A stretch of 64,000 bases of DNA from Actinomycetota bacterium (GTDB taxonomy: Bacteria; Actinomycetota; Geothermincolia; Fen-727; Anoxymicrobiaceae): NCBI GenBank assembly GCA_043807425.1, contig JAZDFZ010000049.1, positions 3,611-67,610 on the forward strand, written 5' to 3'. The notes under the pieces were generated by a model, which worked only from the letters and a program-made list of their open reading frames with translations, had not been told where the DNA came from and ran no database searches. The translations under genes and the position numbers were made by a program. Of the stretch, positions 4,838 to 54,022 are shown piece by piece (the stretch's first letter is position 1; the number at the start of each line of letters is the position of its first letter).

Positions 4838-5906
4838 TCGCCACCTTCAGCGCGTTGAAGTCGGTCGTGCCCAGTCCGGCCTCGGCAGCGTGGACGATGT
4901 ACGGCACATCGGCGGCGGTCATGCCGAATAGCGTACAGGCGTAGCTGTCCGCGGCCACCACGTCACCGCTGGCGATGACGGTGTTGGCGGCGCGGGTAGC
5001 CCCCGGTCCGCCAGGGCCGTTCTCCAGGAGGATGACGGTCGCGTCGACCACCGAAAGCTTCGGCCTTACCAGGGTAGCCAGGTCGGCTATGGACTGCTGC
5101 AGTCCGTGGTTGTGTATCTCGGACATGTTGGATGTGACGCCGATGAAGTTCTTCAGGCCCAGGCTGAGCCCCGCACTGCCGTGATGCTTGGCCTTGGGGA
5201 CGGTGATGACCACGTCGGCGGCGAGCACCTCGGGGTAGACGTCCGCGCTCGTCATGGCGACCGCATTGGGGATCGGAGTGGTGACACCGCCCCCCTGGTC
5301 GCTCCCGCCGCGCACCAGGAGCTCCGCGCCCGCCGCCCGGGCCGCCGCGCCTATGCCGTTGGCGTTCAGGCACGCCTCCGCCGCACCGCGTAGGGTGTGG
5401 TCGACCAGCAGGACCCTGGCCGCGCCCGCCTCTCTGCACATCTTTATGACCTCGGCCACCACGTCCGGGTTGGTGCTCGTTCCACCTTCCAGGCCGTCCA
5501 TGAAGCTCGCATTCGGCTTCACCACCACCACGTTGCCGGCCTGCACGAACCTGCTCATGCCCCCGATAGCGTCCAGAGCCTTCCGGGTCATCTCGGCCGG
5601 GGTGCCGGTGGTCGCCACCGCGAGGTCCGCGGCCGGCGCCGGCTGCGGCGGCGGGGAAGTCGCCGGAGCGCTGGTCCTGGTCACGGTAGGCGTCCGCCCG
5701 CCGCAAGAGGCCGCGACGGCGCCGAGTGAGGCTCCCAGCAGCACGCCCCCGGCCAGGCGCCCCATCTTTTTCAGGAACTCCCGCCGCTCCAGGTCCCCGC
5801 CGAGCCGTCTTATGACACGCTCGATCTCCTCGGGATCCACAAGCCCGTCGAAACGATTAGGCAACTCCATTGCTCCTTTTTCTACACCCGCGTGAACCGC
5901 GCTCAA
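4830..5906 (-). CDS. DUF362 domain protein with Tat signal peptide
   Basis: RREFLKKMGRLAGGVLLGASLGAVAASCGG, then a Pro/Thr-rich linker, then a DUF362-like body (VVVKPNASF...). Overlaps the polyferredoxin gene by 8 nt. Start is uncertain (TTG 5906 or ATG 5870). Confidence 0.7.
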   Translation of the reverse strand: MSAVHAGVEKGAMELPNRFDGLVDPEEIERVIRRLGGDLERREFLKKMGRLAGGVLLGASLGAVAASCGGRTPTVTRTSAPATSPPPQPAPAADLAVATTGTPAEMTRKALDAIGGMSRFVQAGNVVVVKPNASFMDGLEGGTSTNPDVVAEVIKMCREAGAARVLLVDHTLRGAAEACLNANGIGAAARAAGAELLVRGGSDQGGGVTTPIPNAVAMTSADVYPEVLAADVVITVPKAKHHGSAGLSLGLKNFIGVTSNMSEIHNHGLQQSIADLATLVRPKLSVVDATVILLENGPGGPGATRAANTVIASGDVVAADSYACTLFGMTAADVPYIVHAAEAGLGTTDFNALKVASV

Positions 5907-6003
5907 TCTACCTCATGTATAAAGGACACGCCCATGACAAACAACAACCGACCGACACCTTTAACAGTAAGAACACGCCGTTAACGCCCCCTTCAAGATC
6001 CGC

Positions 6004-6040
6004 CATGTAACAAAAGGGTCTGACCCTTTTGTTACATGGC
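6004..6040. repeat. perfect 37-bp palindrome, member of the GTCWGRC-core element family
   Basis: CCATGTAACAAAAGGGTC-T-GACCCTTTTGTTACATGG has 18-bp perfect arms. Intergenic, between divergent genes. Confidence 0.9.
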
Positions 6041-6099
6041 AGGGCAGGGCCGGCGGTCGTCGAATACGTAGCAGCGCACGGAGCCGTTTACGAGGGGAG

Positions 6100-6354
6100 A
6101 TGATGAGAATGCCCGACATGGAGGGTCACGTCTGCCAGTCCTGCGGGATGCCGATGGGCCCCGACGACTACGCCGGCGGAAGCGAGCAGGGCGACTACTG
6201 CAGCTACTGCGTGGTCCACGGTGAGTACACCGCCGACAGGGAGAACGTCAAGCAGAAGATCGCGGACAAGATCCAGGAGATGAGCGGCAAGCCGCGCTCC
6301 GAAGCCGAATCCGAGGCCGAGCAGACCATGTCCGGCCTGAAGCGCTGGCAGTAG
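6100..6354 (+). CDS. putative zinc-ribbon domain protein
   Basis: 84 aa. CQSCGMP...CSYCVVHG Cys pairs. GAGGGGAGA Shine-Dalgarno ahead of the ATG. Confidence 0.6.
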   Translation: MMRMPDMEGHVCQSCGMPMGPDDYAGGSEQGDYCSYCVVHGEYTADRENVKQKIADKIQEMSGKPRSEAESEAEQTMSGLKRWQ

Positions 6355-6373
6355 GAGAGGAACGGCCGGCGGT

Positions 6374-8122
6374 CTACTTCTGCTTCTGCTGGGGCTTGAG
6401 TGCTTCCTCGCTGTAGGTGCAGTTGGGGTCCCACAGCAGCCACTGCTTTACCCCCGCGTTCTCGCAGGCGTCGATCTGGCGCCGCACCATGTCCGGGGTG
6501 TAGGCGACCTTGAGGCTGAAGTCCTGAAGCCAGGGGCGAAGCCCCGCGTTACCGCCCTTCATGGCCTTCTTGAAGTCGTCGACCGAGTGGCTGACCGTGT
6601 CGGCGGGATTGTTCTCGGGGCTTTTGATGTTGTACTCGCCGGGGTTGTAGTGTGACGGGTACATCATCGGCGACAGGTAGTCCACTATCTTCGTCACGTC
6701 GCTGATCTTCTGCCCGATGTTCATCTCCCCCTGCTTGCTGGCGGTAAGGCCGAATACGTCCGCCGAGATGAACACGTTGTAGGCGGCCAGCTTCTCGCGA
6801 GCGTACATGAGGAAGTCGCTGATGACCTGCCCCTGGGAGCGGCCGTCCTGGTGCGGGTAGGCGCACTCCTCGATGTCGCCGTCGGAGGGGAACCGGACGT
6901 AGTCGAACTGGACCTCGTTGAATCCCGCGCGCGCCGCTGCCTCGGCCACCGCCAGGTTGTAGTCCCAGACCTCCTTCGAGTAAGGGTCCAGCCAGTTGCC
7001 GCTGCCCCAGAGACCACCGCCCGTGCTCTGCACCGCCAGGTCCGGCCGTACCTCGGCGAGCTTGGGGTCCTTGAAGCATACGATCCGGCAGATGGTGTAG
7101 ACATCGCGGTAGCGGAGGGTATCCACCAGTGAGTCGAGCTTCAGGTAGTCGTTCGCCGCGCCCGACTCCTGGGCAAGCGGGTTGTCTATGTCGAAGCCTA
7201 TCTGCCCGGCCTCGTCCTTGAGGTCGATCTCCAGCGAGTTGAGCTCGGTCCGCTCCGTGAGACCTATCATGTCCTGGAGGTTGCTCTCGCTCGCGGCGAT
7301 GAAGATGGAGACGTGAACACCCTTGGCTGCGACCTGCTTCTGGGTCACCACGAAGGCGGCCGCCTCGTTGCCCGCACCGTCCTTCGCGGAGATCCTGAGG
7401 CTCCTGGTCCGGGGGCTATTGGTGGTGCCCTCGAAGTTGCCCTTGGCGTCGACGGACAGGGTCTCCTTGCCGATGGTGACTGCAGAGCCGGGGTCCGTCT
7501 GTCCGGCGAACTCGACCTTGACCTCGCCGGTTCCCTTCAGGTCGGTCACCTTCTTCTTTGTCAGGTCGAGCTTCGGAGGGGTGGTGTCCACCGTGAACTC
7601 CCAGCCGGCGGTGCGCTTGCCCATGAGCCCGCCGCCGTTCACCACCAGCAGGGCCTGGTGCTTGCCGTCCGTGAGCGGGACCTGGCAGGCGAGTGCCCGC
7701 GCTTCGACCGAGATGTTGTTGGTGACCTCCTTGCCGTCGACCTTGAGGGTGACGGTGTTCGGCTTCACCGGCTTGGAGAACTTCGCCTTGATATCGACCG
7801 TGGGGTTGCGGACGAAGGAGCCCCGGACGGGCGTGATGCCGCCGATCGGGCTCGGATAGACGAACGCGAAGAACCAGATCACCAGGAACAGCAGGAGCGC
7901 CCCTCCGACTATGAGTGCGAGCATCGGTCCGGTCAAGCGACCCAGGGGCCCGGCCTTGGGAGAGCGCTCAGGCCTGCTGCGCGGCCGGTCCATGCTCGGC
8001 GGCCCACCGTTCGGCTGCCTGCGTGCGGCGTCGCGCTGCTCGCCGTAGTCGAGGCTGCGGGGCCTGCCTCCGACGAAGACGTCTGAAGATCGTCTGTTCG
8101 TAAACCTTCGTTTCCTGGCCAT
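6374..8122 (-). CDS. membrane-anchored putative glycoside hydrolase (DUF4015-like TIM barrel) with Ig-like N-terminal domains
   Basis: TM helix LALIVGGALLLFLVIWFFAF. C-terminal region SLEIDLKDEAGQIGFD...GFNEVQFDYVRFPSDG...YLSPMMYPSHY...GVKQWLLWDP. Start moved to ATG 8122 (AGGGAGA Shine-Dalgarno), which avoids overlap with the upstream gene. Confidence 0.65.
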   Translation of the reverse strand: MARKRRFTNRRSSDVFVGGRPRSLDYGEQRDAARRQPNGGPPSMDRPRSRPERSPKAGPLGRLTGPMLALIVGGALLLFLVIWFFAFVYPSPIGGITPVRGSFVRNPTVDIKAKFSKPVKPNTVTLKVDGKEVTNNISVEARALACQVPLTDGKHQALLVVNGGGLMGKRTAGWEFTVDTTPPKLDLTKKKVTDLKGTGEVKVEFAGQTDPGSAVTIGKETLSVDAKGNFEGTTNSPRTRSLRISAKDGAGNEAAAFVVTQKQVAAKGVHVSIFIAASESNLQDMIGLTERTELNSLEIDLKDEAGQIGFDIDNPLAQESGAANDYLKLDSLVDTLRYRDVYTICRIVCFKDPKLAEVRPDLAVQSTGGGLWGSGNWLDPYSKEVWDYNLAVAEAAARAGFNEVQFDYVRFPSDGDIEECAYPHQDGRSQGQVISDFLMYAREKLAAYNVFISADVFGLTASKQGEMNIGQKISDVTKIVDYLSPMMYPSHYNPGEYNIKSPENNPADTVSHSVDDFKKAMKGGNAGLRPWLQDFSLKVAYTPDMVRRQIDACENAGVKQWLLWDPNCTYSEEALKPQQKQK

Positions 8123-12056: not shown

Positions 12057-12506
12057 GTGATGATAGACATTCGCAAGGCAACGCTCGCGGACGAGGAAGA
12101 CGTCGCGGTGCTCATCAGGGAACTGGGTGATGCCGTCGGGGTCACCGGAGACATGAACCCGGTCGCGTGGTACAGCACCCTTCGCAAGATGATCGCCTCG
12201 CCGGAGTGGACGTTCATCCTCGCCGAGGAAGGCGCACAGAAGCTCGGCCTGATGATACTCCTCATCCTGCCGTCCCTTTACCTGGGTGGGAACCGCGCGT
12301 CCATAACCGAGCTCATAGTCACCAGGGAAGCCCAGGGCAAGGGCGTGGGAGCGCTGCTGGTGGAAGAGGCCAAGAGGGCCTCCAGGACCATGGGATGCCA
12401 GGAGCTCGACGTGAGCGTCGAGGTCGACAACGAGAAGGCCCGTGGATTCTACGAGAAGCTCGGCTTCGAAGAGAAGCACGCGGACTACGGGATGAGGCTG
12501 GACTGA
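12057..12506 (+). CDS. GNAT family N-acetyltransferase
   Basis: 149 aa. REAQGKGVGALLVEEAKRAS...NEKARGFYEKLGFEE. Confidence 0.85.
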   Translation: MMIDIRKATLADEEDVAVLIRELGDAVGVTGDMNPVAWYSTLRKMIASPEWTFILAEEGAQKLGLMILLILPSLYLGGNRASITELIVTREAQGKGVGALLVEEAKRASRTMGCQELDVSVEVDNEKARGFYEKLGFEEKHADYGMRLD

Positions 12507-22170: not shown

Positions 22171-22248
22171 GGGTCAGACCCCGCTTCTGCGTTCGATGAA
22201 GCCGCGGAAGGGATCACGCCGTAATGCAAAAGCAAGGGGTCTGACCCC
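22171..22248. repeat. 78-bp hairpin-forming GTCWGAC-core element
   Basis: GGGTCAGACCCC (22171-22182) and GGGGTCTGACCCC (22236-22248) are inverted. Inner arms GCTTCTGCGTT / AATGCAAAAGC. Confidence 0.8.
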
Positions 22249-25004: not shown

Positions 25005-25069
25005 TGACTCAGAATGGGGTCAGGCACTATTCTGAGTCATAGGAGTCTGACTCCCCCGGAGGTCAGGCC
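25005..25069. repeat. cluster of three GTCWGRC-core palindromic units
   Basis: TGACTCAGAAT-GGGGTCAGGCACT-ATTCTGAGTCA (perfect 11-bp arms, 25005-25039), GGAGTCTGACTCC (25042-25054) and GGTCAGGCC (25061-25069). Lies between convergent stops at 25000 and 25084. Confidence 0.85.
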
Positions 25070-29688: not shown

Positions 29689-29803
29689 GCGTCAGACAAT
29701 GTGGCTGCGTCTCCTAAGCGCCAGACAAGTGGGGTCAGACACTTGATTGCATTCATGTGCGCCGGTCGCGTAGCGGTGATAATGCAATAAATTGTCTGAC
29801 GCC
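29689..29803. repeat. compound GTCAGAC-core element with 23-bp imperfect terminal inverted repeats
   Basis: GGGGTCAGACACTTGATTGCATT (29731-29753) versus the reverse complement of AATGCAATAAATTGTCTGACGCC (29781-29803) gives 20/23 matches. There is an extra half-site, GCGTCAGACAAT, at 29689-29700. Confidence 0.85.
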
Positions 29804-31605: not shown

Positions 31606-31636
31606 TGTAGCAAAAGGGTCAGGCACTTTTGCTACA
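31606..31636. repeat. GTCAGGC-core hairpin element
   Basis: TGTAGCAAAAG-GGTCAGGCA-CTTTTGCTACA, with perfect 11-bp arms. Confidence 0.85.
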
Positions 31637-34056: not shown

Positions 34057-34078
34057 CTCGATCACCTCGATTACGTGT

Positions 34079-34114
34079 GTTAACAAATATGTTAACAGAT
34101 TTATTAACAGAATT
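34079..34114 (-). promoter_or_regulatory. three tandem 12-bp GTTAACA repeats, probable mazEF operator/promoter
   Basis: GTTAACAAATAT GTTAACAGATTT ATTAACAGAATT, starting 23 nt upstream of the antitoxin ATG. Strikingly AT-rich. Confidence 0.5.
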
Positions 34115-36006: not shown

Positions 36007-36218
36007 CGCCCCTCCGTTCCGGTTGTCTTCAGGCCCGATTCTACCACCCGGCCGGGCAACCGTCGCTGAAGAGTAGACAGCACCTCCTTCCCCTTGATAG
36101 CATGTCTTAGCAAACGGCAACAGCGGTGACGTTGACAACGCGACAGCCGATGGCCTGCGAGGAGACGGGTCTGTAAACCTTGTGTCTATTGCAGGTTTGG
36201 GGGGCGGTGTATTGAGCG

Positions 36219-39200
36219 GTGGCAGGCGGACCTGATCTGCTTCCAGCCCGGGGAATGACCCAGCCTAGAACCCGACGGGGGGGGGCCCTAGCCCACGTCT
36301 GCGCTTCCTTCATCGTCATGTTCGTTTGCACGTCCACGTTCATCACCCCAGCGAGCCTGAACGCGGCTGATAACAACTGGAAGTGGGATTTCGATAATCC
36401 ATCGGACTACTCGTTCAACGCCGATTACATTGATGTCACTGGTGCCACTGCGCGTCTAAAAGCATTCCCGCTCGAGGAAGGATGGTGGCAGGGCTACTCT
36501 CCCGCTCAGAACCCTGACGATCTTGGCATCACCGGAGGATCCAGCCTCACCCTCGACCCAAGCGGAAATGCGATCCTTATCGCCAGCGTCAAGGATGATG
36601 GTGACGATCCGTATGACGCGTGGGTCGAGAAGCGACGCGGGTCCGACGGGGCGATTCTCTGGACATCCCGCGAGGATATCGGCGGCTGGGGCCTAGATAA
36701 CAAATGTCAGGCAGTCATCTGCACAACCGGCGGAAGGGTTATCACCGCGGGATACAGTGAGAAACCCGCCGCCGCCGGTACTGAGCTGTGGATCCGTCGG
36801 CAGGATACCACAGGACTGAACCCCATTACTGTTGAGTTCGACCTGCTGAAGCATGTCCAGTGTGCAAGCCTCACATGCGACAAGGCGGGCAACATCCTTG
36901 CGTGCGGCACCACGGTCGACGACCCGAGCCCCTTCGGCACCGAAAAGATGAAGGCCTGGGTGATGAAGCTCGATTCAAATCTGGTCCAGATCTGGCAGCG
37001 TATCTACGCCTATACGGACCCCGGAGCTGACACGTTCGCCCTCTCGATCTCAGCGGATTCGAGCAACAGCCCGGTTGTCGCAGGCTACGTGGCGTACGGT
37101 AGGCCCTACCCGATCAGCACCGACATCTGGGTGAGGAAATATACTACCGGCGGCGATCCTGTATGGGCTGCTGATACGACCATCAGCGTTGATGCCTTCG
37201 ACATGGCGATCTCCGTCGACTGTTGGGACAGGTCGCCGAGTGGGATGACTTCTGACAATCGGATCTTCGTCGGAGGTCTCACGGGACACATGGATGGTTC
37301 GGACCTCATTGGTGAGGCGTTCTATGCTCGGCTGGACCAGAACGGCACCGTTTCGTGGCAACATACCCACACCTCCGCTGGCTACGAGGAAGGGCGGAGC
37401 TTCGTTGCCGCCGATTACAGAGGAGACCTGTCTGTGGCGGCGCAGCACGAGGACGCCGATAGACTGCTCTTCGGCTGGGTCGCGAAATGCGACGGGCAGG
37501 ACGGCTCTACCCGGTTCGAGAACACCCATGCGCTCTCACCGAGCCCCCGCTCGGCCTACTGGACGGCCTTCAGTGTCTCGGATCCGGCTCAACCCCTGGA
37601 ACTCGAGGACGTCGCTTTCGCTTTCACCGGGTCGTCGATTGAAGGCGAGATAACGGTGAGGAAGTACCCGATGACTAAGTACTCCTCGCTCTCCCCCGCG
37701 ATTTCCACGAGCAAGCGTCCGCTCGATACTAGCGAACAGGCTCCTACCAACTTCTCGATGGCATTCGGGGCCGGCAATCATGGAACGGTACTCTTTCAGC
37801 TTTCCAACAACCTGAGCACCTGGTACTGGCACAACGGGTCGGCCTGGAAGTCCACGAACTGGGCTGGAGGTCCCATTTGGGATGCATGCCAAGCCAACAC
37901 CGTCGCCGAGATTGACACGAACATCTCCACGTTCGACACGGGCACGAACAAGGCCCTTTACGTCAGAGTGTTCCTGAGGGGTGATGGAGATCAGCAGGTC
38001 GTCCTGGACTGGATATCCTGCGACAGTAGGCCCGCGGAGGAGTGCCACACATGGTACTTCGCCGATGGCTCAACCGCCTGGGGCTTTGACGAGTACGTAG
38101 CGGTCATGAACCCGAACAAACGTCCGGCCCTTGTCGAGATCACTTACATGCTTCCCAATGGCGATTCGGACAACCTGCTTGCCCGCGAGACCGCAGCTCC
38201 GTGGCTGTACCCTGACAAGAAGCTATGGGTGGATCCCTATTCCAGGGCAACTGTCCATGTGGACCACTTGTTAGATGATGTCGATCTGTCACTCAGACTG
38301 GAAGCCAGAGGCGAGGACGAGCAGCACGTAGGCGTGGTCGCCGAACGAACCTTGATTAAGACCGTGGGAGGTGTGCCGCTTCAATGCGGCTCAGTAGGCG
38401 CTGGCACGACCCGTCCTTCCAACACCTGGTATTTCGCGGAGGGGACGATCCGCGACGGCTTCGAGACCTACTTCTGCATCCAGAACCCGGAAACCACCAA
38501 TGCGAATGTGACTCTGGACTTCATGAAGGGAGATGGGGGCTCGGTCAGCTATACACTTGATGTTCCTGCCAATTCAAGAAAGACGGTGAATGCTAGGACT
38601 GACGTATCACTCTCACCGGGTTCCGAGGTCGCCAGGGACTTCTCATGCGAGGTGAGCTCCACCTCCGGCATCATCGTCGAGCGCTCCATGTCGGCAAACG
38701 ACTGGCAGGCCTTCGACGGCACTCTCGGCACAACTGCCCCGGCTACGACCTGGCACTTCGCTGAGGGTTGCACGAACTATGGTTTTGAGACCTTTCTGTT
38801 AGTGCAGAATCCAGGCGACGCCGAAGCAGCCGGCATAGCAACCTTCTTCTGGAGCGAACCTGATCCCAATGATCCTTGCGCTCCCAGGGTGCCCAAGGAG
38901 TATGCTCAGCCTTTCTTGGTAGCACCTAGAAGTAGGGTGACCATTGTACCAGCTCAATTCATCGGCCCTCAGGAATTCTCCTCGAGGTTGGATTTGAGCC
39001 TTCCCGTGGTCTGCGAGCGCTCCATGTACTGGAACTCGAGGCGCGGACTCCACGCCGCCAGCGGGATCGCGCAGGCGAGACCCTACGTCTACTTCGCTGA
39101 AGGTTCCACTGCCAAGATGAACGGCTTCGAAGAGTACCTCTGCATCCAGAACCCGAACGGCGTAGACATAAAGGTCACAATCACAGCCCTGACCCCGTGC

Positions 39201-39458
39201 GGCCCGGGCGGGTTTCTCGAGTTCACGGTTAGAAAGAACACGAGAACCACCATCGATATTTTCAATGTCGTCAAGGACAAGGAGAACTCGCTGGAGGTCT
39301 ACTGCTCCGATGTAGTCGCCTACGAGTTCATCGCCGAGAGGTCGCTCTACTGGCGGGACGAGACCGGGGCCAAACGGGGTGGAGGAGTGACAACGGGTTA
39401 CCGGTCGCTCCCACGGATCGGAGACATGCCGGAACTGTCATGGAAACCACCGAAATGA
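36219..39458 (+). CDS. secreted giant protein 1: signal peptide, beta-propeller-like repeats, middle domain, four WxFAEG/xNP/ER-MY modules
   Basis: 1079 aa. Hydrophobic N-terminus ALAHVCASFIVMFVCTSTFITPASLNA. Recurring A/GGY...W motifs (VITAGYS, PVVAGYV, IFVGGLTG). Modules begin at residues ~611, 735, 843 and 956. Start could be ATG 36255. Confidence 0.8.
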   Translation: MAGGPDLLPARGMTQPRTRRGGALAHVCASFIVMFVCTSTFITPASLNAADNNWKWDFDNPSDYSFNADYIDVTGATARLKAFPLEEGWWQGYSPAQNPDDLGITGGSSLTLDPSGNAILIASVKDDGDDPYDAWVEKRRGSDGAILWTSREDIGGWGLDNKCQAVICTTGGRVITAGYSEKPAAAGTELWIRRQDTTGLNPITVEFDLLKHVQCASLTCDKAGNILACGTTVDDPSPFGTEKMKAWVMKLDSNLVQIWQRIYAYTDPGADTFALSISADSSNSPVVAGYVAYGRPYPISTDIWVRKYTTGGDPVWAADTTISVDAFDMAISVDCWDRSPSGMTSDNRIFVGGLTGHMDGSDLIGEAFYARLDQNGTVSWQHTHTSAGYEEGRSFVAADYRGDLSVAAQHEDADRLLFGWVAKCDGQDGSTRFENTHALSPSPRSAYWTAFSVSDPAQPLELEDVAFAFTGSSIEGEITVRKYPMTKYSSLSPAISTSKRPLDTSEQAPTNFSMAFGAGNHGTVLFQLSNNLSTWYWHNGSAWKSTNWAGGPIWDACQANTVAEIDTNISTFDTGTNKALYVRVFLRGDGDQQVVLDWISCDSRPAEECHTWYFADGSTAWGFDEYVAVMNPNKRPALVEITYMLPNGDSDNLLARETAAPWLYPDKKLWVDPYSRATVHVDHLLDDVDLSLRLEARGEDEQHVGVVAERTLIKTVGGVPLQCGSVGAGTTRPSNTWYFAEGTIRDGFETYFCIQNPETTNANVTLDFMKGDGGSVSYTLDVPANSRKTVNARTDVSLSPGSEVARDFSCEVSSTSGIIVERSMSANDWQAFDGTLGTTAPATTWHFAEGCTNYGFETFLLVQNPGDAEAAGIATFFWSEPDPNDPCAPRVPKEYAQPFLVAPRSRVTIVPAQFIGPQEFSSRLDLSLPVVCERSMYWNSRRGLHAASGIAQARPYVYFAEGSTAKMNGFEEYLCIQNPNGVDIKVTITALTPCGPGGFLEFTVRKNTRTTIDIFNVVKDKENSLEVYCSDVVAYEFIAERSLYWRDETGAKRGGGVTTGYRSLPRIGDMPELSWKPPK
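38049..39400 (+). repeat. four tandem coding modules in protein 1
   Basis: TWYFADG..VMNP..VAERTL; TWYFAEG..IQNP..IVERSM; TWHFAEG..VQNP..VCERSMYW; YVYFAEG..IQNP..IAERSLYW. Confidence 0.85.
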
Positions 39459-42316
39459 TCAGGGGCGCCTCAGGCGATTATCGCGGACGCCGCTCGTCTA
39501 AACTAGCGGTCGTCCCGGCGGTCCTGCTGGCGGCTCTGTTGCTCATTCCTGCCGGTCAAGTAGGGGGAGCCGACGCAGGGGTCGATGCGAATACGAAGAT
39601 CCTGGGCATACAAGTGCACTCGTCGAACTCTCCTACCTGGAAGGAAGGTGGTGCCACAAAGTACCAGTTCAGTCCTGTGCCCGAGGTATACCAAAGCAAG
39701 TTTGAAGGTGTGTGTGTATACGTCCCGTGGTATGAATTCGAGATCGGTGAGGGTCTATACAACATCGACAAGTACAAGCAGATCTTCGAGGATATCAAGG
39801 CCGCGGGAATTAAGCATGTAAAGGTGTGCTTCTGTCATTTCCTACCGGGTCATGTTCGCAATGCAATCCATAGGAGGTTCGAGAAAGGTGAACGTACGTA
39901 TACAGGCGACTATGCTGAAGCATGGGAGCCATGGGTCGCTTCCTGGGCAAACAGAGATCCTGACAATGCAAGCGGGTTAACGTCGATGCATGATTTCACA
40001 AACTGGTGGTCCACTCAGTTATTCACGGGCACTGGCTCTGACTTCAAGCAGATGAGGACCGCAGGAGATGCCTTCTATGGCTTTGCTGTCAATCTTGCGA
40101 TCCCTGAGTACAAGGCCATGGTCCGCGAGTTTGCCCGGAACTTCCGCCAGTATGTCGATGTCTGGGAACCATGGGATGAGCCGGGGTGGGGACTTAACAC
40201 ATGCGCTTCGGGAGTCAATATCTACTCGGATTCGGGCTCCATAAACTGGCCTAGAAAAGGATCTAATCTCTCGATAACACGCTTCTCCGGCTGGCCCACA
40301 CAGATGACCATCAAGGATTCCTGGGGCGAGAGAATAGTCCCGAGTGACTACGAGAAGGTCCACCTCGCATGCTACGAGGCCCTTGAGACCGCTTACAGTG
40401 GGAGCGGAAAGGAGCCTTACCTACTGACCTCATCCCTGGTCGGCGGGAACTCTTTGCTGGATAAGCCGTATACGGAATTCAATGGGAACCTGGTCGGATA
40501 CAACTGCAATGACACCACGCCATACACCACCCTTGCCGAGAGGGACGTCTCTGTGGTGGTCCGGTCGGACAGAGAGGTGATCTCCGAGCGACCTGTGTAC
40601 TTCAACTACAACGGATGGTGTCCGGGCGGCCACGTGACGGCGGGCACAACCTCTCCATCCAAGGACTGGTACTTCGCCGAAGGCAACACGCTTTCCAACT
40701 TCGACGAGTACATCACCGTATACAATCCCAGCTCCACCAAGGCCTCCCTGGCTCTCGACTACATGATCGAGGGTATCGGGCTGGTTCAGAGAGCAGAAAC
40801 GGTCAACGCTTACTCCAGGGCGACCTTCCGTGCAAAGGAGCATCTCAAGGACAACGCGGCTTATCTCGGGGGCAATGTCAGCTTGCACCTGCGCTCGAGT
40901 ACGCCCGTACTGGCCGAAAGACCGATGTACTTCGACTACTACGGTATCACCGGCGGGGACTGCGCCGTTGGAGCCAAGACCATCTCCAGTACTTCCTTCT
41001 TCGCCGAGGGCACCACCATGCCCGGCTTCGACGAATGGCTGTGCCTGCAGAACCCCAACGCGGAGGATATGGTCATAAATGCCACTTATATGATGGAAAA
41101 CCGAGATCCGGTATACCAGGAATACCTGGTACCACAGCACCAGCGGTACACCATCAAGGTCAATGATGTAGTAGGCCCATACGCTAACGTATCGGTTGCC
41201 CTCTCCTCCGACAAAGGCTTCGTTGCCGAGCGCCCCATGTACTTCCGGGCTTTCAGACCCGATGTCACCTACTCGGGAGGCCATGACATCGTCGGAGCTC
41301 CCTCTCCCAAGAAGACCTGGCACTTCGCCGAGGGCACCACTCGCAAGAACGAGGTAGATGGCTTCTTCGAGGAATGGCTCTGCCTGCAGAATCCCAATCC
41401 TGAAGAGGTAACGGTCAATGCAACCTATATGCTTGCGGGCAAGGAACCGATATTTGCGAGCTATCAGGTCCCGCCAAGCCAGAGGCTCACCATAGAGGTA
41501 AGCAACCCCGAGTTTATCGAGCAGGGAAACGACGTGTCGGTGTTGCTCTCGTGCGAATCCCCGTTCGTCGCCGAACGTCCCATGTACTTCAATGTCTCCG
41601 GTAAGACCCCCCCGAACGTATTCAATGGTGGCAGCGTTAGCATGGGAGGAGAGCCCAGCACCAAGACTTACTTCGCGGAGGGAAGGGTGTCGCCGGTGTT
41701 CGATGAGTGGATAACGATCGTGAATCCAAATGACGAAGAAGCCAAGGTCCATATTGATACCTACTACAGCACCATTAAAGGAAAGACCGCACACGTCAAG
41801 ATCCCCCCGAAGCAGAGATACACGCTTCTGCTCAACAAACTCCCTCCCGGTGCTTACGCATGGACGGACGCGGTATCTCTCCACCTGTTCGACATGCCTT
41901 CTCTCTGGCCCGGCATCTACCAGGGACTGAAGGACGAACTCCACAAGCGATTCATCGACAAAGAACTCGCGGTCTCTTCCTGCGGGTGGGGACACGGGAA
42001 ATCCGTCATGAGCGTCGAGGATGAGAATTACTACTACAACCCGGTTGAGGAAGGCGCGGAGGCTGAATATCCGCATTCCAGAGACGGACAGGCAAGGGCG
42101 GTACGTGACTGGATCAGGGCCTTGTTCGACCAGGGATGCAACAAGGTCTGGTTCTTCCAAGACATCGACCCCCGGAAGACAGAGGACAGATTCTTCGGGC
42201 TGTTCATGTACACAACACACGCCCCACTCACGGAATCCGCGATAGAGCCGACTGATGCGTGGTGGGAGTACGTGAAGTTGCAGGAGTGGTTGAAATCATC
42301 TGGGGGATCGGAATAA
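39455..42316 (+). CDS. secreted giant protein 2: signal/anchor, glycoside-hydrolase-like barrel halves flanking four modules
   Basis: ATG 39455 overlaps the protein-1 stop (ATGA). KLAVVPAVLLAALLLIPAG anchor. YVPWYEFEIGEGLYN..., VDVWEPWDEPGW, then the module array, then ...KVWFFQDID...FFGLFMY. Confidence 0.8.
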   Translation: MIRGASGDYRGRRSSKLAVVPAVLLAALLLIPAGQVGGADAGVDANTKILGIQVHSSNSPTWKEGGATKYQFSPVPEVYQSKFEGVCVYVPWYEFEIGEGLYNIDKYKQIFEDIKAAGIKHVKVCFCHFLPGHVRNAIHRRFEKGERTYTGDYAEAWEPWVASWANRDPDNASGLTSMHDFTNWWSTQLFTGTGSDFKQMRTAGDAFYGFAVNLAIPEYKAMVREFARNFRQYVDVWEPWDEPGWGLNTCASGVNIYSDSGSINWPRKGSNLSITRFSGWPTQMTIKDSWGERIVPSDYEKVHLACYEALETAYSGSGKEPYLLTSSLVGGNSLLDKPYTEFNGNLVGYNCNDTTPYTTLAERDVSVVVRSDREVISERPVYFNYNGWCPGGHVTAGTTSPSKDWYFAEGNTLSNFDEYITVYNPSSTKASLALDYMIEGIGLVQRAETVNAYSRATFRAKEHLKDNAAYLGGNVSLHLRSSTPVLAERPMYFDYYGITGGDCAVGAKTISSTSFFAEGTTMPGFDEWLCLQNPNAEDMVINATYMMENRDPVYQEYLVPQHQRYTIKVNDVVGPYANVSVALSSDKGFVAERPMYFRAFRPDVTYSGGHDIVGAPSPKKTWHFAEGTTRKNEVDGFFEEWLCLQNPNPEEVTVNATYMLAGKEPIFASYQVPPSQRLTIEVSNPEFIEQGNDVSVLLSCESPFVAERPMYFNVSGKTPPNVFNGGSVSMGGEPSTKTYFAEGRVSPVFDEWITIVNPNDEEAKVHIDTYYSTIKGKTAHVKIPPKQRYTLLLNKLPPGAYAWTDAVSLHLFDMPSLWPGIYQGLKDELHKRFIDKELAVSSCGWGHGKSVMSVEDENYYYNPVEEGAEAEYPHSRDGQARAVRDWIRALFDQGCNKVWFFQDIDPRKTEDRFFGLFMYTTHAPLTESAIEPTDAWWEYVKLQEWLKSSGGSE
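40502..41900 (+). repeat. one half-module plus four tandem coding modules in protein 2
   Basis: ...ISERPVYF; DWYFAEG..VYNP..LAERPMYF; TSFFAEG..LQNP..VAERPMYF; TWHFAEG..LQNP..VAERPMYF; KTYFAEG..IVNP.. (divergent end). Confidence 0.85.
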
Positions 42317-45048
42317 TGGACATGAATAAGATGCTCAAAGCGTCGGCAGTGGCCGTCATTGCCATCATCGCGGTGTGTTCAGCTATGAAGTGTTCAACCG
42401 ATTCACTGGCAGAACCTGTTGTTGAGTGGCCAGAAGGTGTCGTTAGAGTAAGCCAGCAACCTGCTGTCTCATTACTGAACATCCACGATGGTCTGGGTGG
42501 GGTCATTGTCTTGTTCAGAGACGAGGGCGATATCAACAAGTACTACATCAAGCGCGTTTGCTCGGACGGCACCTCGCTAGCGGGTTGGGGCGGTGGGCTT
42601 GAATGCCCCAAGACAAATCGCTTGGTTCCAGATGGAAGCGGGGGGGTTTGGCTTCTATACCTGGAGGATAGCTCGGAGCGTTTCCGACTCACTCTGTTGA
42701 GGCATTATTTCGGGGACGGGTCCGTTGATAGCGAAGTACAGGAAGGGAAGTCACTTATAGATCTGCCAACAGCCAACTTCCCAACGGTGCTCCTCGTAGA
42801 TGAATTCGGTGGTGTCTATTTCGCGTGGACTGATTGGCACATGGACAGCCCTCACTACCAGACTATCTACTGCGTACGCTACGATAAATATTTCAACGTA
42901 ACGCCAGGCTGGAACCCTGCAGGGAATCTCGTGGGAGTGATTGCTACACCGGGTGGTGAAACGTTCCTCAATCAAATACGTGGCGATGGCAGTGGCGGAG
43001 TATTCCTGGTATGGAATGAGAAGCCCGCTGATGGACCATATCGGTTGACAAGGGTTGATTCAAATGGAAGTCACCACCCTGGTTATTCTACCTTCGGCAA
43101 GCCGCTTGAGGGCACGCTCAGTTGGCGAAAGGACGAGTGGGGGGAAGAGCAACGCGGCTCTATTCTACTCACTGCGGAAGTGGATGAGGAGGGGGGAGTC
43201 TATTTCGTATGGTCAGAGGAATGCGCCGAGAGCTTCGTCGATTACGATCATGCTGTTTTCGCAGGCAAACGGGACTCTGATGGGAAACTGTTGTGGCAGT
43301 GCCTGATGGGATGCTATCACACGGAGGGAACGAGTCCATGGTTGATTCCCGACTGCTATGGTGGCGCATACGCGTTTGCTGAAGAGAGATGGCAGGAATA
43401 TGGCAGCAATGCTACTAAGGATCATGCCGGCCATTTCGAGAGGAATGGACGTCTTTCCAGTGGCTGGCCTCGAGAGCTGCCATTCACTATCCCTGAGTTC
43501 AACATCCCGGCAAGCGGACTGAATGGGTGGCCTGTATACCCGGACCTGGAAGGTGGCTTCTATGCTATCGGAGGAGAAAAGTGGCTGAGATTCGACAAGA
43601 GCGGGGCGGAGCATACCGGCTGGCCACAGGCCGGTGCGCCTGTTGGGATGTACGTCAACTACTTCTGGAATGTACCGCCCCGGGTGAGCCCCCGGTCGTT
43701 CATAGCACTTCAGGATGCCGGTGCTGGGAGTTGTCTCTATGTCTTCAAATTCACCGACCGCCTGGAGCCCCCGAACTTCGATACCTACATCCTGGTGGAG
43801 AACCCGAGCGACCAGGAGGCCGAGGTGTTCTTCAGCCTGATGCTGGAGGACGGAACCTACCGCAAGATAATGAAGGTGGTCCCCGCCCGCTCCCGGCAGA
43901 CCGTGAAGGTCAACGACTACACCCCCTACAAGGCCGTATCCACCAAGGTCGAATCCAGCGTTCCCGTGATAGCCGAGCGCGCCATGTACTTCGACTACCT
44001 GGGCTTCTTCAAGGGAGGGCACGACTGCTCCGGGCTGCCCGCCCCGGGTAAGACCTGGTACCTGGCAGAGGGGTACACCGCCGAGGGCTTCGACACCTAC
44101 TTGTTACTTCAGAATCCCGGGGAGACCGAGGCCTCTGCTAAAGTCACCTACATGCTGCCGGGCTCCAAGACGCAAGGGGAGACCTACTCCGTGCCCGCCC
44201 ACTCCAGGAAGACGGTGTCTGTGGACTCCATCCCCGGCCTTGAGGCCACCGAGCTCTCCATGAGGGTGGACTCTAACGTCGATATCGTGGCCGAGCGTGC
44301 CATGTATTTCGAGTACTACGGCAAGGTGGGAGGACACGTGCAGGCCGGGGTATCATCGCCCTCCGATACCTGGCAGTTCGCCGAGGGCTACACCGCCGAA
44401 GGCTTCGACTCCTACGTCCTGCTGCAGAACCCGGGAGACTCCCCCGCGCACGTCTCCCTCACCTTCATGGAGCCCGACGGCAACACGACCGGGGAGACCA
44501 GAACGATAGAAGCCCATTCCAGGGACACCGTAAAAGTGGACGACATAGGGGGCCTCTCCTCCTCTGAGTTCTCCACCTCCATAACCTCGGACGAACCCAT
44601 TATCTGCGAGAGAGCGATGTACTTCGACTACACGGGGGGCATCGACGGGGGACACGACGCGGTCGGGGCTTCCGCCACCTCTACAACCTGGCACCTCGCC
44701 GAGGGCTACACGGCGGGGGAGTTCGACACCTTCGTGCTGCTCTCCAACCCTTCCGACCAGACTGCGCACGTACGGGCAACCTTCTACAGGTCACAGGGGA
44801 CGCCGGTCACCCAGGAGTTCTCCATGGCAGCCGGAACGCGCCATACCATCGAGACCGACAAGATCCCCGGCCTCGAGGCCGCCGAGTTCTCGACCCTCAT
44901 CGAAAGCACCAACGGCATCGGGGTAGTAGCGGAGCGGGCCGTCTATTTCTCATACGGCTCGGAAGGGTGGCGAGACGGACACGCTGCCCTCGGAGTCACG
45001 GCTCCCTCGACAGACTGGTACTTCGCGGAGGGGTACACGGGGCTATAG
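42316..45048 (+). CDS. secreted giant protein 3: signal peptide, eight-fold DxxGG repeat region, four modules
   Basis: ATG 42316 overlaps the protein-2 stop (TAATG). MDMNKMLKASAVAVIAIIAVCSA signal. Eight D-x-x-G-G-h-aromatic units, then four modules. Ends ...TDWYFAEGYTGL. Confidence 0.8.
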   Translation: MDMNKMLKASAVAVIAIIAVCSAMKCSTDSLAEPVVEWPEGVVRVSQQPAVSLLNIHDGLGGVIVLFRDEGDINKYYIKRVCSDGTSLAGWGGGLECPKTNRLVPDGSGGVWLLYLEDSSERFRLTLLRHYFGDGSVDSEVQEGKSLIDLPTANFPTVLLVDEFGGVYFAWTDWHMDSPHYQTIYCVRYDKYFNVTPGWNPAGNLVGVIATPGGETFLNQIRGDGSGGVFLVWNEKPADGPYRLTRVDSNGSHHPGYSTFGKPLEGTLSWRKDEWGEEQRGSILLTAEVDEEGGVYFVWSEECAESFVDYDHAVFAGKRDSDGKLLWQCLMGCYHTEGTSPWLIPDCYGGAYAFAEERWQEYGSNATKDHAGHFERNGRLSSGWPRELPFTIPEFNIPASGLNGWPVYPDLEGGFYAIGGEKWLRFDKSGAEHTGWPQAGAPVGMYVNYFWNVPPRVSPRSFIALQDAGAGSCLYVFKFTDRLEPPNFDTYILVENPSDQEAEVFFSLMLEDGTYRKIMKVVPARSRQTVKVNDYTPYKAVSTKVESSVPVIAERAMYFDYLGFFKGGHDCSGLPAPGKTWYLAEGYTAEGFDTYLLLQNPGETEASAKVTYMLPGSKTQGETYSVPAHSRKTVSVDSIPGLEATELSMRVDSNVDIVAERAMYFEYYGKVGGHVQAGVSSPSDTWQFAEGYTAEGFDSYVLLQNPGDSPAHVSLTFMEPDGNTTGETRTIEAHSRDTVKVDDIGGLSSSEFSTSITSDEPIICERAMYFDYTGGIDGGHDAVGASATSTTWHLAEGYTAGEFDTFVLLSNPSDQTAHVRATFYRSQGTPVTQEFSMAAGTRHTIETDKIPGLEAAEFSTLIESTNGIGVVAERAVYFSYGSEGWRDGHAALGVTAPSTDWYFAEGYTGL
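43741..45045 (+). repeat. four tandem coding modules in protein 3 (register shifted by one strand)
   Basis: NFDTYILVENP..IAERAMYF..TWYLAEGYT; GFDTYLLLQNP..VAERAMYF..TWQFAEGYT; GFDSYVLLQNP..ICERAMYF..TWHLAEGYT; EFDTFVLLSNP..VAERAVYF..DWYFAEGYT. Confidence 0.85.
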
Positions 45049-45081
45049 CTGGCCGCGCTCGCAAAAACCACCGGCCTTTTG

Positions 45082-45599: not shown

Positions 45600-46370
45600 T
45601 TGCCCGTAGCGGGCGTCGACATAGGCAGCCTGACCGCAAAGGCGGTCGTGCTGCAGGACGGCGAGGTGCTGTCCACCAGCCTCACCCAGACCGGCCACAA
45701 CAGCCGCGTCGCGGGACGGCGTGCCCTGGACATGGCGCTGGACCGCCTGGGACTGGACGAGGGCTCGCTCGGCCTCATCGTCGCCACAGGGTATGGGCGG
45801 ACCGCGGCCGACTTCGCTGGTGAGCGCATCACCGAGATCACCTGCCACGCGCGCGGCGCCAACCGCACCCACCCCGAGGCGCGCACCGTCATCGACCTGG
45901 GCGGACAGGACTCCAAGGCCATCGCCATCGACGACAGGGGCAAGGTGCTCGACTTCGTGATGAACGACAAGTGCTCTGCGGGGACCGGCCGCTTCCTGGA
46001 GGTCATGGCCTCCGCGCTGGAGGTCGAGCTGGACGACCTGGGAGGCCTGTCGCTGGAGTCCTCCTCACCGGCTTCCATCAGCAGCGTCTGCACGGTTTTC
46101 GCCGAGAGCGAAGTGGTCAGCCGGGTGGCCGAGGGAGCGTCGAAGGTCGACATCATCGCCGGCATCCACCAGGCGATAGCCTCCCGCATCTACGCCATGG
46201 CGGCAAGGATCCCCACCAACGAGGCACTGATCATCACCGGTGGGGTCGCCAGGAACATCGGTGTGGTCCGGGCGCTCGAGGAGAAGTTCGGCGTCGGGAT
46301 CGTGGTCCCGGAGATGCCGCAGCACATGGGAGCCCTCGGCGCGGCTATAATCGCCTCAGAACACGGATGA
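45600..46370 (+). CDS. acyl-CoA dehydratase activase (BcrAD/BadFG/HgdC-type ATPase)
   Basis: TTG start after GGGGGTGA. AGVDIGSLTAKAVVL...IDLGGQDSKAI...NDKCSAGTGRFLEVMA. Confidence 0.85.
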   Translation: MPVAGVDIGSLTAKAVVLQDGEVLSTSLTQTGHNSRVAGRRALDMALDRLGLDEGSLGLIVATGYGRTAADFAGERITEITCHARGANRTHPEARTVIDLGGQDSKAIAIDDRGKVLDFVMNDKCSAGTGRFLEVMASALEVELDDLGGLSLESSSPASISSVCTVFAESEVVSRVAEGASKVDIIAGIHQAIASRIYAMAARIPTNEALIITGGVARNIGVVRALEEKFGVGIVVPEMPQHMGALGAAIIASEHG

Positions 46371-46401
46371 CTCAAATAGGGGTCAGGCACGATTCGATTC
46401 A
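46368..46401. repeat. GTCAGGC-core element overlapping the activase stop codon
   Basis: TGACTCAAATA-GGGGTCAGGCAC-GATTCGATTCA (arms match 8/11). Begins with the TGA stop at 46368-46370. Confidence 0.7.
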
Positions 46402-49968: not shown

Positions 49969-49984
49969 CTAACCGCTCTTGGGC

Positions 49985-50028
49985 GGCGGACTTCAGTCCG
50001 CCATCTCGTTCCGGGACTGAAGTCCCGG
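49985..50028. terminator. twin mirrored hairpins between convergent genes
   Basis: GGCGGACTTCAGTCCGCC (49985-50002) and CCGGGACTGAAGTCCCGG (50011-50028). Their central 12-mers are reverse complements of each other. Confidence 0.45.
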
Positions 50029-50033
50029 CCCGA

Positions 50034-50792: not shown

Positions 50793-50868
50793 GGGGGTCA
50801 GACACTTGCACGCTCTCAAGTCCCATAAGCACTCTGATTGGAGTCCACGCGTGAAATTGTCAGACGCC
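50793..50868. repeat. 76-bp GTCAGAC-core element, same subtype as 29731-29803
   Basis: Left end GGGGTCAGACACTTG is identical to the 29731 copy. Right end AATTGTCAGACGCC differs from 29790-29803 only at the central base. Confidence 0.85.
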
Positions 50869-50909
50869 CTCATTATTTTAACGCGCGCGGCCGCTATACT
50901 GTACTGACC

Positions 50910-53875: not shown

Positions 53876-54022
53876 GTGATACGTAACCCGTATCACCTAC
53901 ACGGGAATACACCTCAACCAACTTTTCCCACTCACTGCCACCGTTCGGGTTGCGTGAGAAATAGTGGTTGAGGTGATTTCTCACGGGGAGTATGAGAAAT
54001 AATGGTTGAGGTGAATTCTCAG
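53876..54022. repeat. hairpin/repeat cluster: three copies of TGGTTGAGGTG, two presented in hairpin loops
   Basis: Hairpin GTGATACG/CGTATCAC (53876-53896). 11-mer at 53910-53920 (inverted), 53965-53975 and 54003-54013. Units GTGAGAAAT..ATTTCTCAC (53954-53984) and TGAGAAAT..AATTCTCA (53993-54021). Confidence 0.8.

Follow-up and report, generated by a model that had tools for sequence, protein, structure and literature searches.

Dispersed hairpins with a fixed loop in an uncultured actinobacterium: probable REP-type repeats of a Y1 HUH transposase family

A 64,000-nucleotide (nt) stretch of contig JAZDFZ010000049.1 from an uncultured member of the Actinomycetota (the window; G+C content 63%) carries dispersed palindromic elements with a conserved core. 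With a probability of roughly three in four, these are non-autonomous repeats of the repetitive extragenic palindromic (REP) type, present as single hairpins, inverted doublets and decay products, and belong to the repeat family found with one clade of class-2 Y1 HUH transposases (REP-associated tyrosine transposases, RAYT or ‘RayT’; TIRYT of Di Nocera et al.). What is described here is a known type of element in an uncultured actinobacterium and not a new class of regulatory RNA.

Distribution of the core and the elements of the window

When one mismatch is allowed, the core GGGGTCAGRCAC has seven matches in the window; shuffled sequences have a mean of 1.47 matches and a maximum of 5, and none of 100 shuffles reaches seven. 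The matches are located at 22237 on the minus strand and at 25016, 29731, 31615, 46379, 50794 and 57673 on the plus strand. A shorter core, GGTCAGRC, is found 19 times, compared with 8.2 expected. According to a gene map based on G+C at third codon positions and backed by Pfam matches of neighbouring genes, extragenic DNA makes up about 7% of the window and holds six of the seven matches. The remaining one (57673) lies within the 3′ end of a ferredoxin-like open reading frame (ORF) and is probably a chance match. A preliminary description of this DNA, made from its letters alone, had claimed that the core is repeated, that it avoids genes and that its copies lie either close to stop codons or in divergent promoter regions; all three claims are borne out. 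The sites at 25005, 29689, 31606 and 46368 are 3′ of stop codons, and those at 6004, 22171 and 50793 belong to divergent promoter regions. The repeated hairpins are 31–39 nt long, within the range of about 20–40 nt typical of the palindromic units of REP-type repeats.

The six CAC-type cores, namely the plus-strand matches just listed, share one orientation, and the cumulative GC skew climbs across the window. This strand bias may be tied to replication or transcription; the sample is small, and one of the four copies on the related contig L001 is inverted. A search of the whole window yielded no tRNA genes and no Rfam 15 covariance-model matches. Exact-match look-ups of two window proteins returned no match, and a literature search with the core as a text string brought back only primers and viral sequences.

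By their arms, the copies can be divided into sub-family A (..GCAAAAG/CTTTTGC..), sub-family B (TGACTCARAAT..) and an ATGCAAY type. The elements of the window are as follows.

6002–6040: perfect 39-nt palindrome GCCATGTAACAAAAGGGTC-T-GACCCTTTTGTTACATGGC with 19-nt arms, 100% complementary; a member of sub-family A whose core, GGGTCWGACCC, is the fully symmetric variant; divergent region between a DUF362 gene (minus strand) and a Zn-ribbon gene (plus strand).
22171–22248: two decayed copies forming an inverted doublet, GGGTCAGACCCC ... AATGCAAAAGCAAGGGGTCTGACCCC, with about 55 nt between them; the genes on either side, for a MerR/TetR-type regulator (minus strand) and a histidine kinase (plus strand), are divergent.
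25005–25039, plus strand: clean sub-family B hairpin TGACTCAGAAT-G-GGGTCAGGCAC-T-ATTCTGAGTCA, 9/10 Watson–Crick pairs, 9-nt loop; begins 5 nt 3′ of the stop codon of a 2TM-domain gene, between convergent genes.
25042–25069: two weak core-like remnants beside the 25005 hairpin, GGAGTCTGACTCC (a small palindrome) and GGTCAGGCC.
29689–29803: compound region 5′ of a TPP-enzyme gene.
31606–31636, plus strand: clean sub-family A hairpin TGTAGCAAAAG-GGTCAGGCA-CTTTTGCTACA, 10/10 pairs, 9-nt loop; 20 nt 3′ of the TPP-enzyme stop codon.
46368–46401, plus strand: decayed sub-family B copy TGACTCAAATAGGGGTCAGGCACGATTCGATTCA, a relative of the 25005 copy; overlaps the stop codon of a BcrAD-type ATPase gene, 5′ of an HGD-D gene.
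50793–50870: long form of about 76 nt with inverted ends GGGGGTCAGACACTTGCACGC ... GCGTGAAATTGTCAGACGCCC; divergent methyltransferase/NUDIX promoter region.

In the simple copies the core had been placed in the loop of a hairpin. Of the seven sites, 6002, 25005 and 31606 are of this kind; the other four are decayed, doublet or compound copies, and at 22171–22248, 29689–29803 and 50793–50868 the core sits in the arms. Of the ‘three cores’ reported for 25005–25069, the second and third (25042–54 and 25061–69) have just GTCWGRC in common with the first and are undetected by the covariance model. The compound region consists of GCGTCAGACAAT, then GGGGTCAGACAC plus TTGATTGCATT, a 27-nt spacer, and AATGCAATAAA plus TTGTCTGACGCC; its last two parts (29731–29803) make up an inverted doublet of 73 nt whose 23-nt arms, 87% complementary, contain the cores. 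The left arm of the 22171 doublet, ATGCAAAAGCAAGGGG, is similar to hairpins found on another contig, L012 (ATGCAACACAAGGGG).

Hairpin structure and covariation

The arms quoted in the preliminary description are exact (the 19+19-nt perfect palindrome at 6002–6040, 9/10 pairs at 25005–39 and 10/10 at 31606–36), and stems with at least 9/10 such pairs occur at six positions in the 64 kb, three of which bear the core. The complementarity of the arms is beyond chance: folded as single-stranded DNA, the clean copies at 6002–6040, 25005–25039 and 31606–31636 reach −20.5, −10.9 and −11.1 kcal/mol, with z-scores of −9.5, −6.8 and −5.9. The compound region has a fold of −20.5 kcal/mol (z −4.6), the 22171 doublet and the 50793 long form have z-scores of −3.1 and −2.1, and the fold of the 46368 copy is lost (z −0.03). 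A covariance model run on the window gives significant scores only for the three clean copies (43.7 bits, E = 7.5e-10; 38.1 bits, E = 3.5e-8; 44.8 bits, E = 3.6e-10, in the same order); the 46368 copy scores 10.7 bits, the 22171 doublet is matched at core level only and the 50793 long form also at core level.

Twenty-five distinct hairpin copies from the window and several other genomes, picked for at least 7/10 pairs, were aligned. The loop and the closing G–C pair are invariant or nearly so, and ten of the 11 stem pairs are altered on both sides. The covariation score is 0.685, compared with 0.20 in shuffled alignments and at most 0.22 when the pairing partners are slid by ±1–3 columns; paired cells amount to 88%, a percentage inflated by the way in which copies were selected, versus 63% after shuffling and at most 55% after sliding. 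The claim of a fixed loop on a covarying stem is therefore well founded. The statement that the arms differ between copies is true across the copies as a whole; the arms are nonetheless grouped in sub-families and are near-identical in three L001 copies. In a DNA palindrome, a hairpin at the DNA level and one at the RNA level leave an identical covariation signal. On the GGGG strand there are 15 G·T pairs versus six A·C pairs, a weak hint as to which strand is active. Since the stem covaries around a fixed loop, the data suggest that a structure is recognised and that the specificity for sequence is in its loop, and the ‘protein-binding hairpin’ mentioned in the preliminary description comes close to this conclusion.

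Symmetry of the core could also be the mark of double-stranded DNA operators, read as GGGTCWGACCC by a dimeric regulator or a nucleoid protein. Fully symmetric versions are indeed present in two divergent promoter regions (6002–6040; 22171/22236), one of them adjoining the MerR/TetR-type regulator. The commonest core, GGGGTCAGGCAC, breaks the dyad symmetry, however, and the outer arms are symmetric and vary freely, the opposite of what an operator would show. Moreover, the neighbouring genes are functionally unrelated, most copies are found at gene ends and the same element occurs at transposase genes in genomes of 45% to 65% G+C, all of which makes operators a highly improbable explanation. 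A sigma-54 promoter (GGCAC-N-TTGC) was ruled out by its wrong spacing; Actinomycetota are also not known to have a sigma-54.

Association with Y1 HUH transposases

A scan of metagenomes for the 21-nt centre CAAAAGGGTCAGGCACTTTTG yielded nine loci, six of them at 62–65% G+C, two (L013 and L015) at 45% and one at 27%, which may be a chance match. On five of the six high-GC contigs, nine hairpins were examined, and each of them is extragenic. A scan of viral contigs with a 17-mer gave five matches on contigs of 42–49% G+C; they lack palindromic arms and were judged to be due to chance.

L013 and L015 contain a gene for a 262-residue Y1 HUH transposase (Pfam Y1_Tnp, 1.6e-10), which scores 61 bits against the NCBIfam model REP_Tyr_transpos (REP-associated tyrosine transposase; cut-off 80 bits). 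Directly downstream of the L013 gene are two hairpins, GACACAAAAG-GGTCAGGCAC-TTTTG.., and an inverted copy, GACACAATGGGGTCAGGTACTTTTGTGTC, is located upstream. Homologues of the protein number more than 5,000; several carry the name ‘REP element-mobilizing transposase RayT’ or an assignment to Prevotella. The homologous loci share a layout in which the GGGG motif faces the gene from either side, being on the sense strand in the upstream flank and on the antisense strand in the downstream one. Their flanking hairpins, and the repeats of Propionibacteriales, are as follows.

L024 (protein 75% identical to that of L013): GGACACAAAGGGGTCAGGCACTTCTGTGTCC on both sides, inverted.
L034 (74% identical): GGACACAAAGGGGTCAGGCACCTCTGTGTCC.
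L025 (63% identical): GCACAACGGGGTCAGAAACCGCTGTGC.
L020 (Prevotella, 56% identical): CCTCACAaTGGGGACAGGCCCTTtTGTGAgg at both flanks.
L031/L032 (Eggerthella): GGACAAAAAGGGGACGGTTCTTTTATGTCC on both sides, inverted.
L037 (Micrococcales metagenome-assembled genome, MAG): GACAGTGGGGACGGTTCCTATGTC, with dispersed copies.
Propionibacteriales: GGGGACGGTTCTC in arrays, enclosed by CCGCC..GGCGG arms.

Identical hairpins thus stand at RAYT genes in other genomes, and the loop co-varies with the transposase lineage: among the homologues from Bacteroidota and Actinomycetota, the loop sequence drifts with the protein and the arm–loop–arm design stays constant. The repeats are very dense in L020, which over its whole 20.8 kb contains 17 hairpin-type copies of CCTCACAnTGGGGACAGGCCCTTnTGTGA, mostly inverted doublets, between the genes of a polysaccharide-synthesis cluster. 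The proteins are about 260 residues long, and their consensus alignment includes NHVH, FQ and YIHQNP motifs. Pfam finds no helix–turn–helix (HTH) domain in the L013 protein; one homologue, P0321, has a precomputed HTH_23 match.

On L034, copies of GACACAAAGGGGTCAGGCACCTTTGTGTC also lie inside called ORFs, one (2430–2465) within the RayT gene itself (1971–2768) and the other (5860–5895) near the 3′ end of a 493-residue ORF. At 12118–12135 of L026 there is a 17-nt partial duplication, ATGCACAACGGGGTCAG followed by ATGCACAACGGGGTCAG and GAACC; L025 has a single copy at the corresponding site (12125). The duplication junction, which falls exactly after GGGGTCAG, may mark where DNA is cut or joined and is the sole hint of a cut site.

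The link between the transposase and the window is drawn from the homology of the repeats, and the genome to which the window belongs would be expected to encode a matching enzyme. Among the homologues of the L013 protein, the 120 best are without exception of low-GC amino-acid composition. A profile search of 1.84 billion representatives produced two proteins with high-GC composition, P0227 and P0246, whose families include Micrococcales, Propionibacteriales, Coriobacteriia and Bifidobacteriaceae. Another candidate, P0004 (74% identical to the L013 protein), has the top high-GC amino-acid ratio and was rejected; it is encoded on a Bacteroidota contig with SusD/TonB genes.

Relatives and turnover at orthologous sites

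A protein-guided genome scan identified five syntenic contigs from uncultured Actinomycetota MAGs (L001–L005). L001 (Modern_marine.mb.309) is 82–94%, mostly 85–93%, identical to the window at the nucleotide level; L002–L005 are 66–83%, mostly 68–76%, identical. L001 contains four hairpin copies in 15.8 kb, three of which have near-identical arms, (A)TGTGCAAAAG-GGTCAGGCA-CTTTTGCACA. The 31606 hairpin is kept in L001, with CAC changed to CCC in its core. The spacer that separates the ADH-like gene from the TPP-enzyme gene carries a simple hairpin, TGTGCAAAGGGGTCAGGCACTTTTGCACA, in L001, a perfect palindrome, GTGCAAAAGGGGCCAGGCCCCTTTTGCAC, in L004, a half-decayed copy in L003 and the 115-nt compound region in the window. 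The BcrAD/HGD spacer (about 46400 in the window) holds, in L001, a decayed B copy and an extra A copy in the opposite orientation (11348–80). An A copy is found 3′ of the DUF362 gene in L001, where the window has unrelated palindromic filler, and the long form at 50793–50870 is part of a block of about 110 nt that is absent from L001. Copies are thus gained, lost and replaced at orthologous sites, which is the behaviour of a repeat family and unlike that of a fixed regulatory site. The preliminary description had argued that the elements are not REP-like sequence copies; this view is not supported, given the near-identical copies in L001, the gain, loss and replacement between genomes 85–93% identical and the presence of the same hairpin, in inverted orientation, around RAYT genes elsewhere.

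The synteny between the window and L001 ends exactly at the 3′ end of the 31606 hairpin (window 31637). Beyond it, L001 has about 0.9 kb (5856–6764), apparently a single minus-strand gene, versus about 90 nt in the window.

The two long forms (29731–29803 and 50793–50870), which are 73–76 nt in length with inverted ends of 21–23 nt, resemble miniature inverted-repeat transposable elements (MITEs) of a DDE transposon with GGGGTCAGAC ends as terminal inverted repeats, and one of them is absent from L001. Yet the polymorphic sites, where the flanks are much diverged, show no recognisable target-site duplication; the two long forms have unrelated interiors; the short hairpins of 31–39 nt carry the motif centrally and not at their ends; and the sole transposase found with the motif is a Y1 HUH enzyme. 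There is accordingly very little likelihood that the elements are MITEs.

Several observations weigh against the REP-type reading. Neither tblastn nor a profile search of six-frame translations finds a Y1 transposase gene in the window or in L001–L005, nor is there one on the L011–L019 contigs besides L013 and L015. For the window’s lineage this is weak evidence, because about 130 kb is covered (64 kb plus about 70 kb from close relatives) and such genes are usually single-copy. The actinobacterial transposases retrieved (Eggerthella, Micrococcales, Propionibacteriales) have GGGGACGGTTC loops, and the GGGGTCAGGCAC loop of the window matches elements of the Bacteroidota type and not these. One copy, 3′ of the ADH-like gene, is conserved in position with an intact palindrome as far as L004, in which the TPP-enzyme gene is about 75% identical (nucleotide and protein), which would also fit selection for a host function. 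Finally, five of the six oriented hairpin copies are in the sense of the upstream gene.

The last two points also favour a different explanation, according to which the elements are primarily RNA cis-elements under host selection, that is, hairpins in 3′ untranslated or intercistronic regions that end, stabilise or process transcripts or are bound by a protein at the loop. The clean copies 5–20 nt 3′ of stop codons, the same place of the hairpin 3′ of the ADH-like gene in L001 and L004, the covarying stem and the excess of G·T pairs are likewise in its favour. However, copies are also present in divergent promoter regions (6002, 22171, 50793) and, at L001 11348–80, in the opposite orientation. 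The stems are A/T-rich, the loop has 9–12 nt and there is no T-tract; a terminator scan skips the 25005 and 31606 hairpins. Comparison of the copies with Rfam 15, as the preliminary description had suggested, gives no family match at gathering thresholds or at E ≤ 10, where only generic hairpins respond (microRNA models, 17–23 bits versus gathering thresholds of 74–93). Close relatives differ by gain, loss or replacement of copies, and the same hairpin at transposase genes in unrelated phyla is not explained by an RNA element specific to host genes. A primarily RNA-level function is consequently unlikely.

Other repeats in the region

Further repeats were noticed in the window and its relatives. 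A distinct inverted repeat, GGCGGACTTCAGTCCGCC ... GGGACTGAAGTCCCGG, fills the convergent spacer at 49975–50033, where L001 has an A-type hairpin; it is similar in style to GGAGTCTGACTCC (25042–54), and the two may represent another small palindromic family. At 53905–53980, in the spacer between an 833-residue TIG/PPC-domain gene and the next gene, there is an inverted repeat with 30-nt arms that are 77% complementary and 16 nt apart. Just 3′ of a PanE-like gene (34078–34109), an A/T-rich repeat of TGTTAACA-type half-sites, TGTTAACAAATATGTTAACAGATTTATTAACA, looks like an operator.

A tandem array of 34-nt units, AAACGCGCCAACGGGGACAGGCACCACCGACGCG, precedes the ADH-like gene in L003 (3380–3530), and one unit is cut short directly after GGGGAC. 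At the matching position, L004 (8638–8670) has a perfect palindrome, GCGCCAATGGTGCC-A-GGCACCATTGGCGC. The window also includes a block of about 9 kb (36048–45074) with a G+C content of 55–59% and three large paralogues (1079, 958 and 929 residues) that match DUF5719. This block has no counterpart in the syntenic contigs L001, L003, L004 and L005 and is an insertion or island; its borders (36.0–45.1 kb) lack a repeat element.

Proposed mechanism and implications

That the loop is fixed and the stem covaries is most likely due to a Y1 HUH transposase that recognises the element on single-stranded DNA, and not to an RNA regulator. By analogy with the TnpA of IS200/IS605 and the TnpA-REP of E. coli, the transposase, usually single-copy, would recognise the element as a single-stranded DNA hairpin whose stem need only pair and whose specific determinant, GGGG(T/A)CAG.., would be located in the loop. 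The enzyme would cleave and rejoin single-stranded DNA, and copies could in this way be gained, lost and exchanged in extragenic DNA. They would survive mainly just 3′ of stop codons and in promoter gaps, where they would do little harm. Transcribed copies may secondarily serve as 3′ hairpins, and such an RNA-level role would be compatible with the data. More speculatively, and with less than even probability, this RAYT clade, unlike the enzymes of GTAG-type REPs, might recognise the 12-nt loop (GGGGWCAG....) on any pairing stem and perhaps nick within it or just after it, in the manner of Rep proteins at the nonanucleotide loop of rolling-circle origins.

If this speculative reading is true, the identical loop and inner stem in a Bacteroidota-like organism of 45% G+C and an actinobacterium of 64% G+C would mean that transposase and repeats crossed phyla together. 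On the REP-type reading in general, RAYT-associated repeats would be extended to a deep, uncultured, anaerobic lineage of Actinomycetota. In annotation, the hairpins would be masked as REP-type repeats rather than called riboswitches, small RNAs or operators; in the window’s lineage they would flag hot spots of intergenic turnover and a break in synteny.

Comparison with known systems

Rho-independent terminators and the REP-type hairpins that stabilise mRNA 3′ ends are similar to the present elements in their position a few nucleotides 3′ of stop codons. They differ in that the elements have A/T-rich stems, a large loop and no T-tract, and occur at promoters and in both orientations.

In the replication origins of CRESS-DNA viruses and of rolling-circle Rep proteins, a conserved nonanucleotide is located in the loop of a variable stem. 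These HUH hairpin origins and the subterminal hairpins of IS200/IS605 would have in common with the elements a fixed loop, a stem that need only pair, an HUH enzyme and single-stranded DNA, and the analogy would be a functional one. The IS200/IS605 enzymes cleave outside the hairpin. Unlike the HUH origins, the copies described here are chromosomal and dispersed, with no Rep or replication module.

The systems of REPs or REPINs and their RAYTs (TnpA-REP of E. coli, Pseudomonas REPINs) also consist of short extragenic palindromes, often 3′ of genes and sometimes in inverted doublets; they form lineage-specific families that persist and turn over and are tied to a single-copy Y1 HUH transposase whose gene is flanked by the repeats. 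Doublets of the present family are found at 22171–22248, at 29731–29803, on L012 (3833–3933) and many times in L020; the best-preserved copies of the window and L001 are singlets. The conserved sequence is here in a loop of 9–12 nt and not in foot and stem, and there are several stem sub-families per genome, with A/T-rich stems in a genome of 64% G+C. The GT[AG]G 5′ foot of canonical REPs is not a constant feature, the foot varying among GTAG, GTGC, GTAA, TCGC, TTGC, ACAC and others in the 25-copy alignment; GTAG is confined to the copy at 31606 and the ortholog of that copy.

Under the names ‘TIRtrons’ and ‘TIRYT’, Di Nocera et al. (2013, PMC3733652) described RAYT-like genes bounded by terminal inverted repeats. 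GGGGWSAS is common to many of these repeats; a part of them is self-complementary, and a part makes up moderately abundant families arranged in dimers or clusters (PMC3733652). Most TIRYTs belong to Y1 subclass 2.1, with a C-terminal DnaA_C/HTH-like domain (Quentin et al. 2018, PMC6006769), which corresponds to RAYT group 1 (PMC6006769; PMC5581495). REP-like sequences were not detected for subclass 2.1 by Quentin et al., and subclass 2.6 of Bacteroidetes is flanked by ‘atypical secondary structures’ without GTAG (PMC6006769). In RAYT groups 1, 4 and 5 the abundance of flanking 16-mers is merely moderate (Bertels et al. 2017, PMC5581495). The subclass of the present proteins is ambiguous, as they mix features of 2.1 (NHVH, FQ, about 260 residues) with the tyrosine motif of 2.6, YIHQNP.

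The TIRYTs or TIRtrons differ from the elements described here in being reported with terminal inverted repeats, whereas the motif is here in the loop of a hairpin whose stem is freely variable. The 12-nt loop GGGGTCAGGCAC is conserved between organisms of 45% and 65% G+C, and the Actinomycetota lineage of the window lies outside those surveys. Likenesses are the arrangement of repeats in inverted orientation around a RAYT-like Y1 gene, their partial self-complementarity, their moderate abundance and their occurrence as singles, dimers and clusters, together with proteins of about 260 residues that have NHVH, an FQ motif and a C-terminal extension. The GGGGWSAS motif is present as GGGGTCAG in the window, L001, L013, L024 and L025 and as GGGGACAG in L020 (Prevotella); the motif of the Actinomycetota transposase clade, GGGGACGG, is one position off. 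Published surveys of this little-studied clade give its associated repeats as none or ‘atypical’, and the hairpins suggest a rule for it, by which the stem may vary freely around a constant loop, whose sequence drifts along with the protein.

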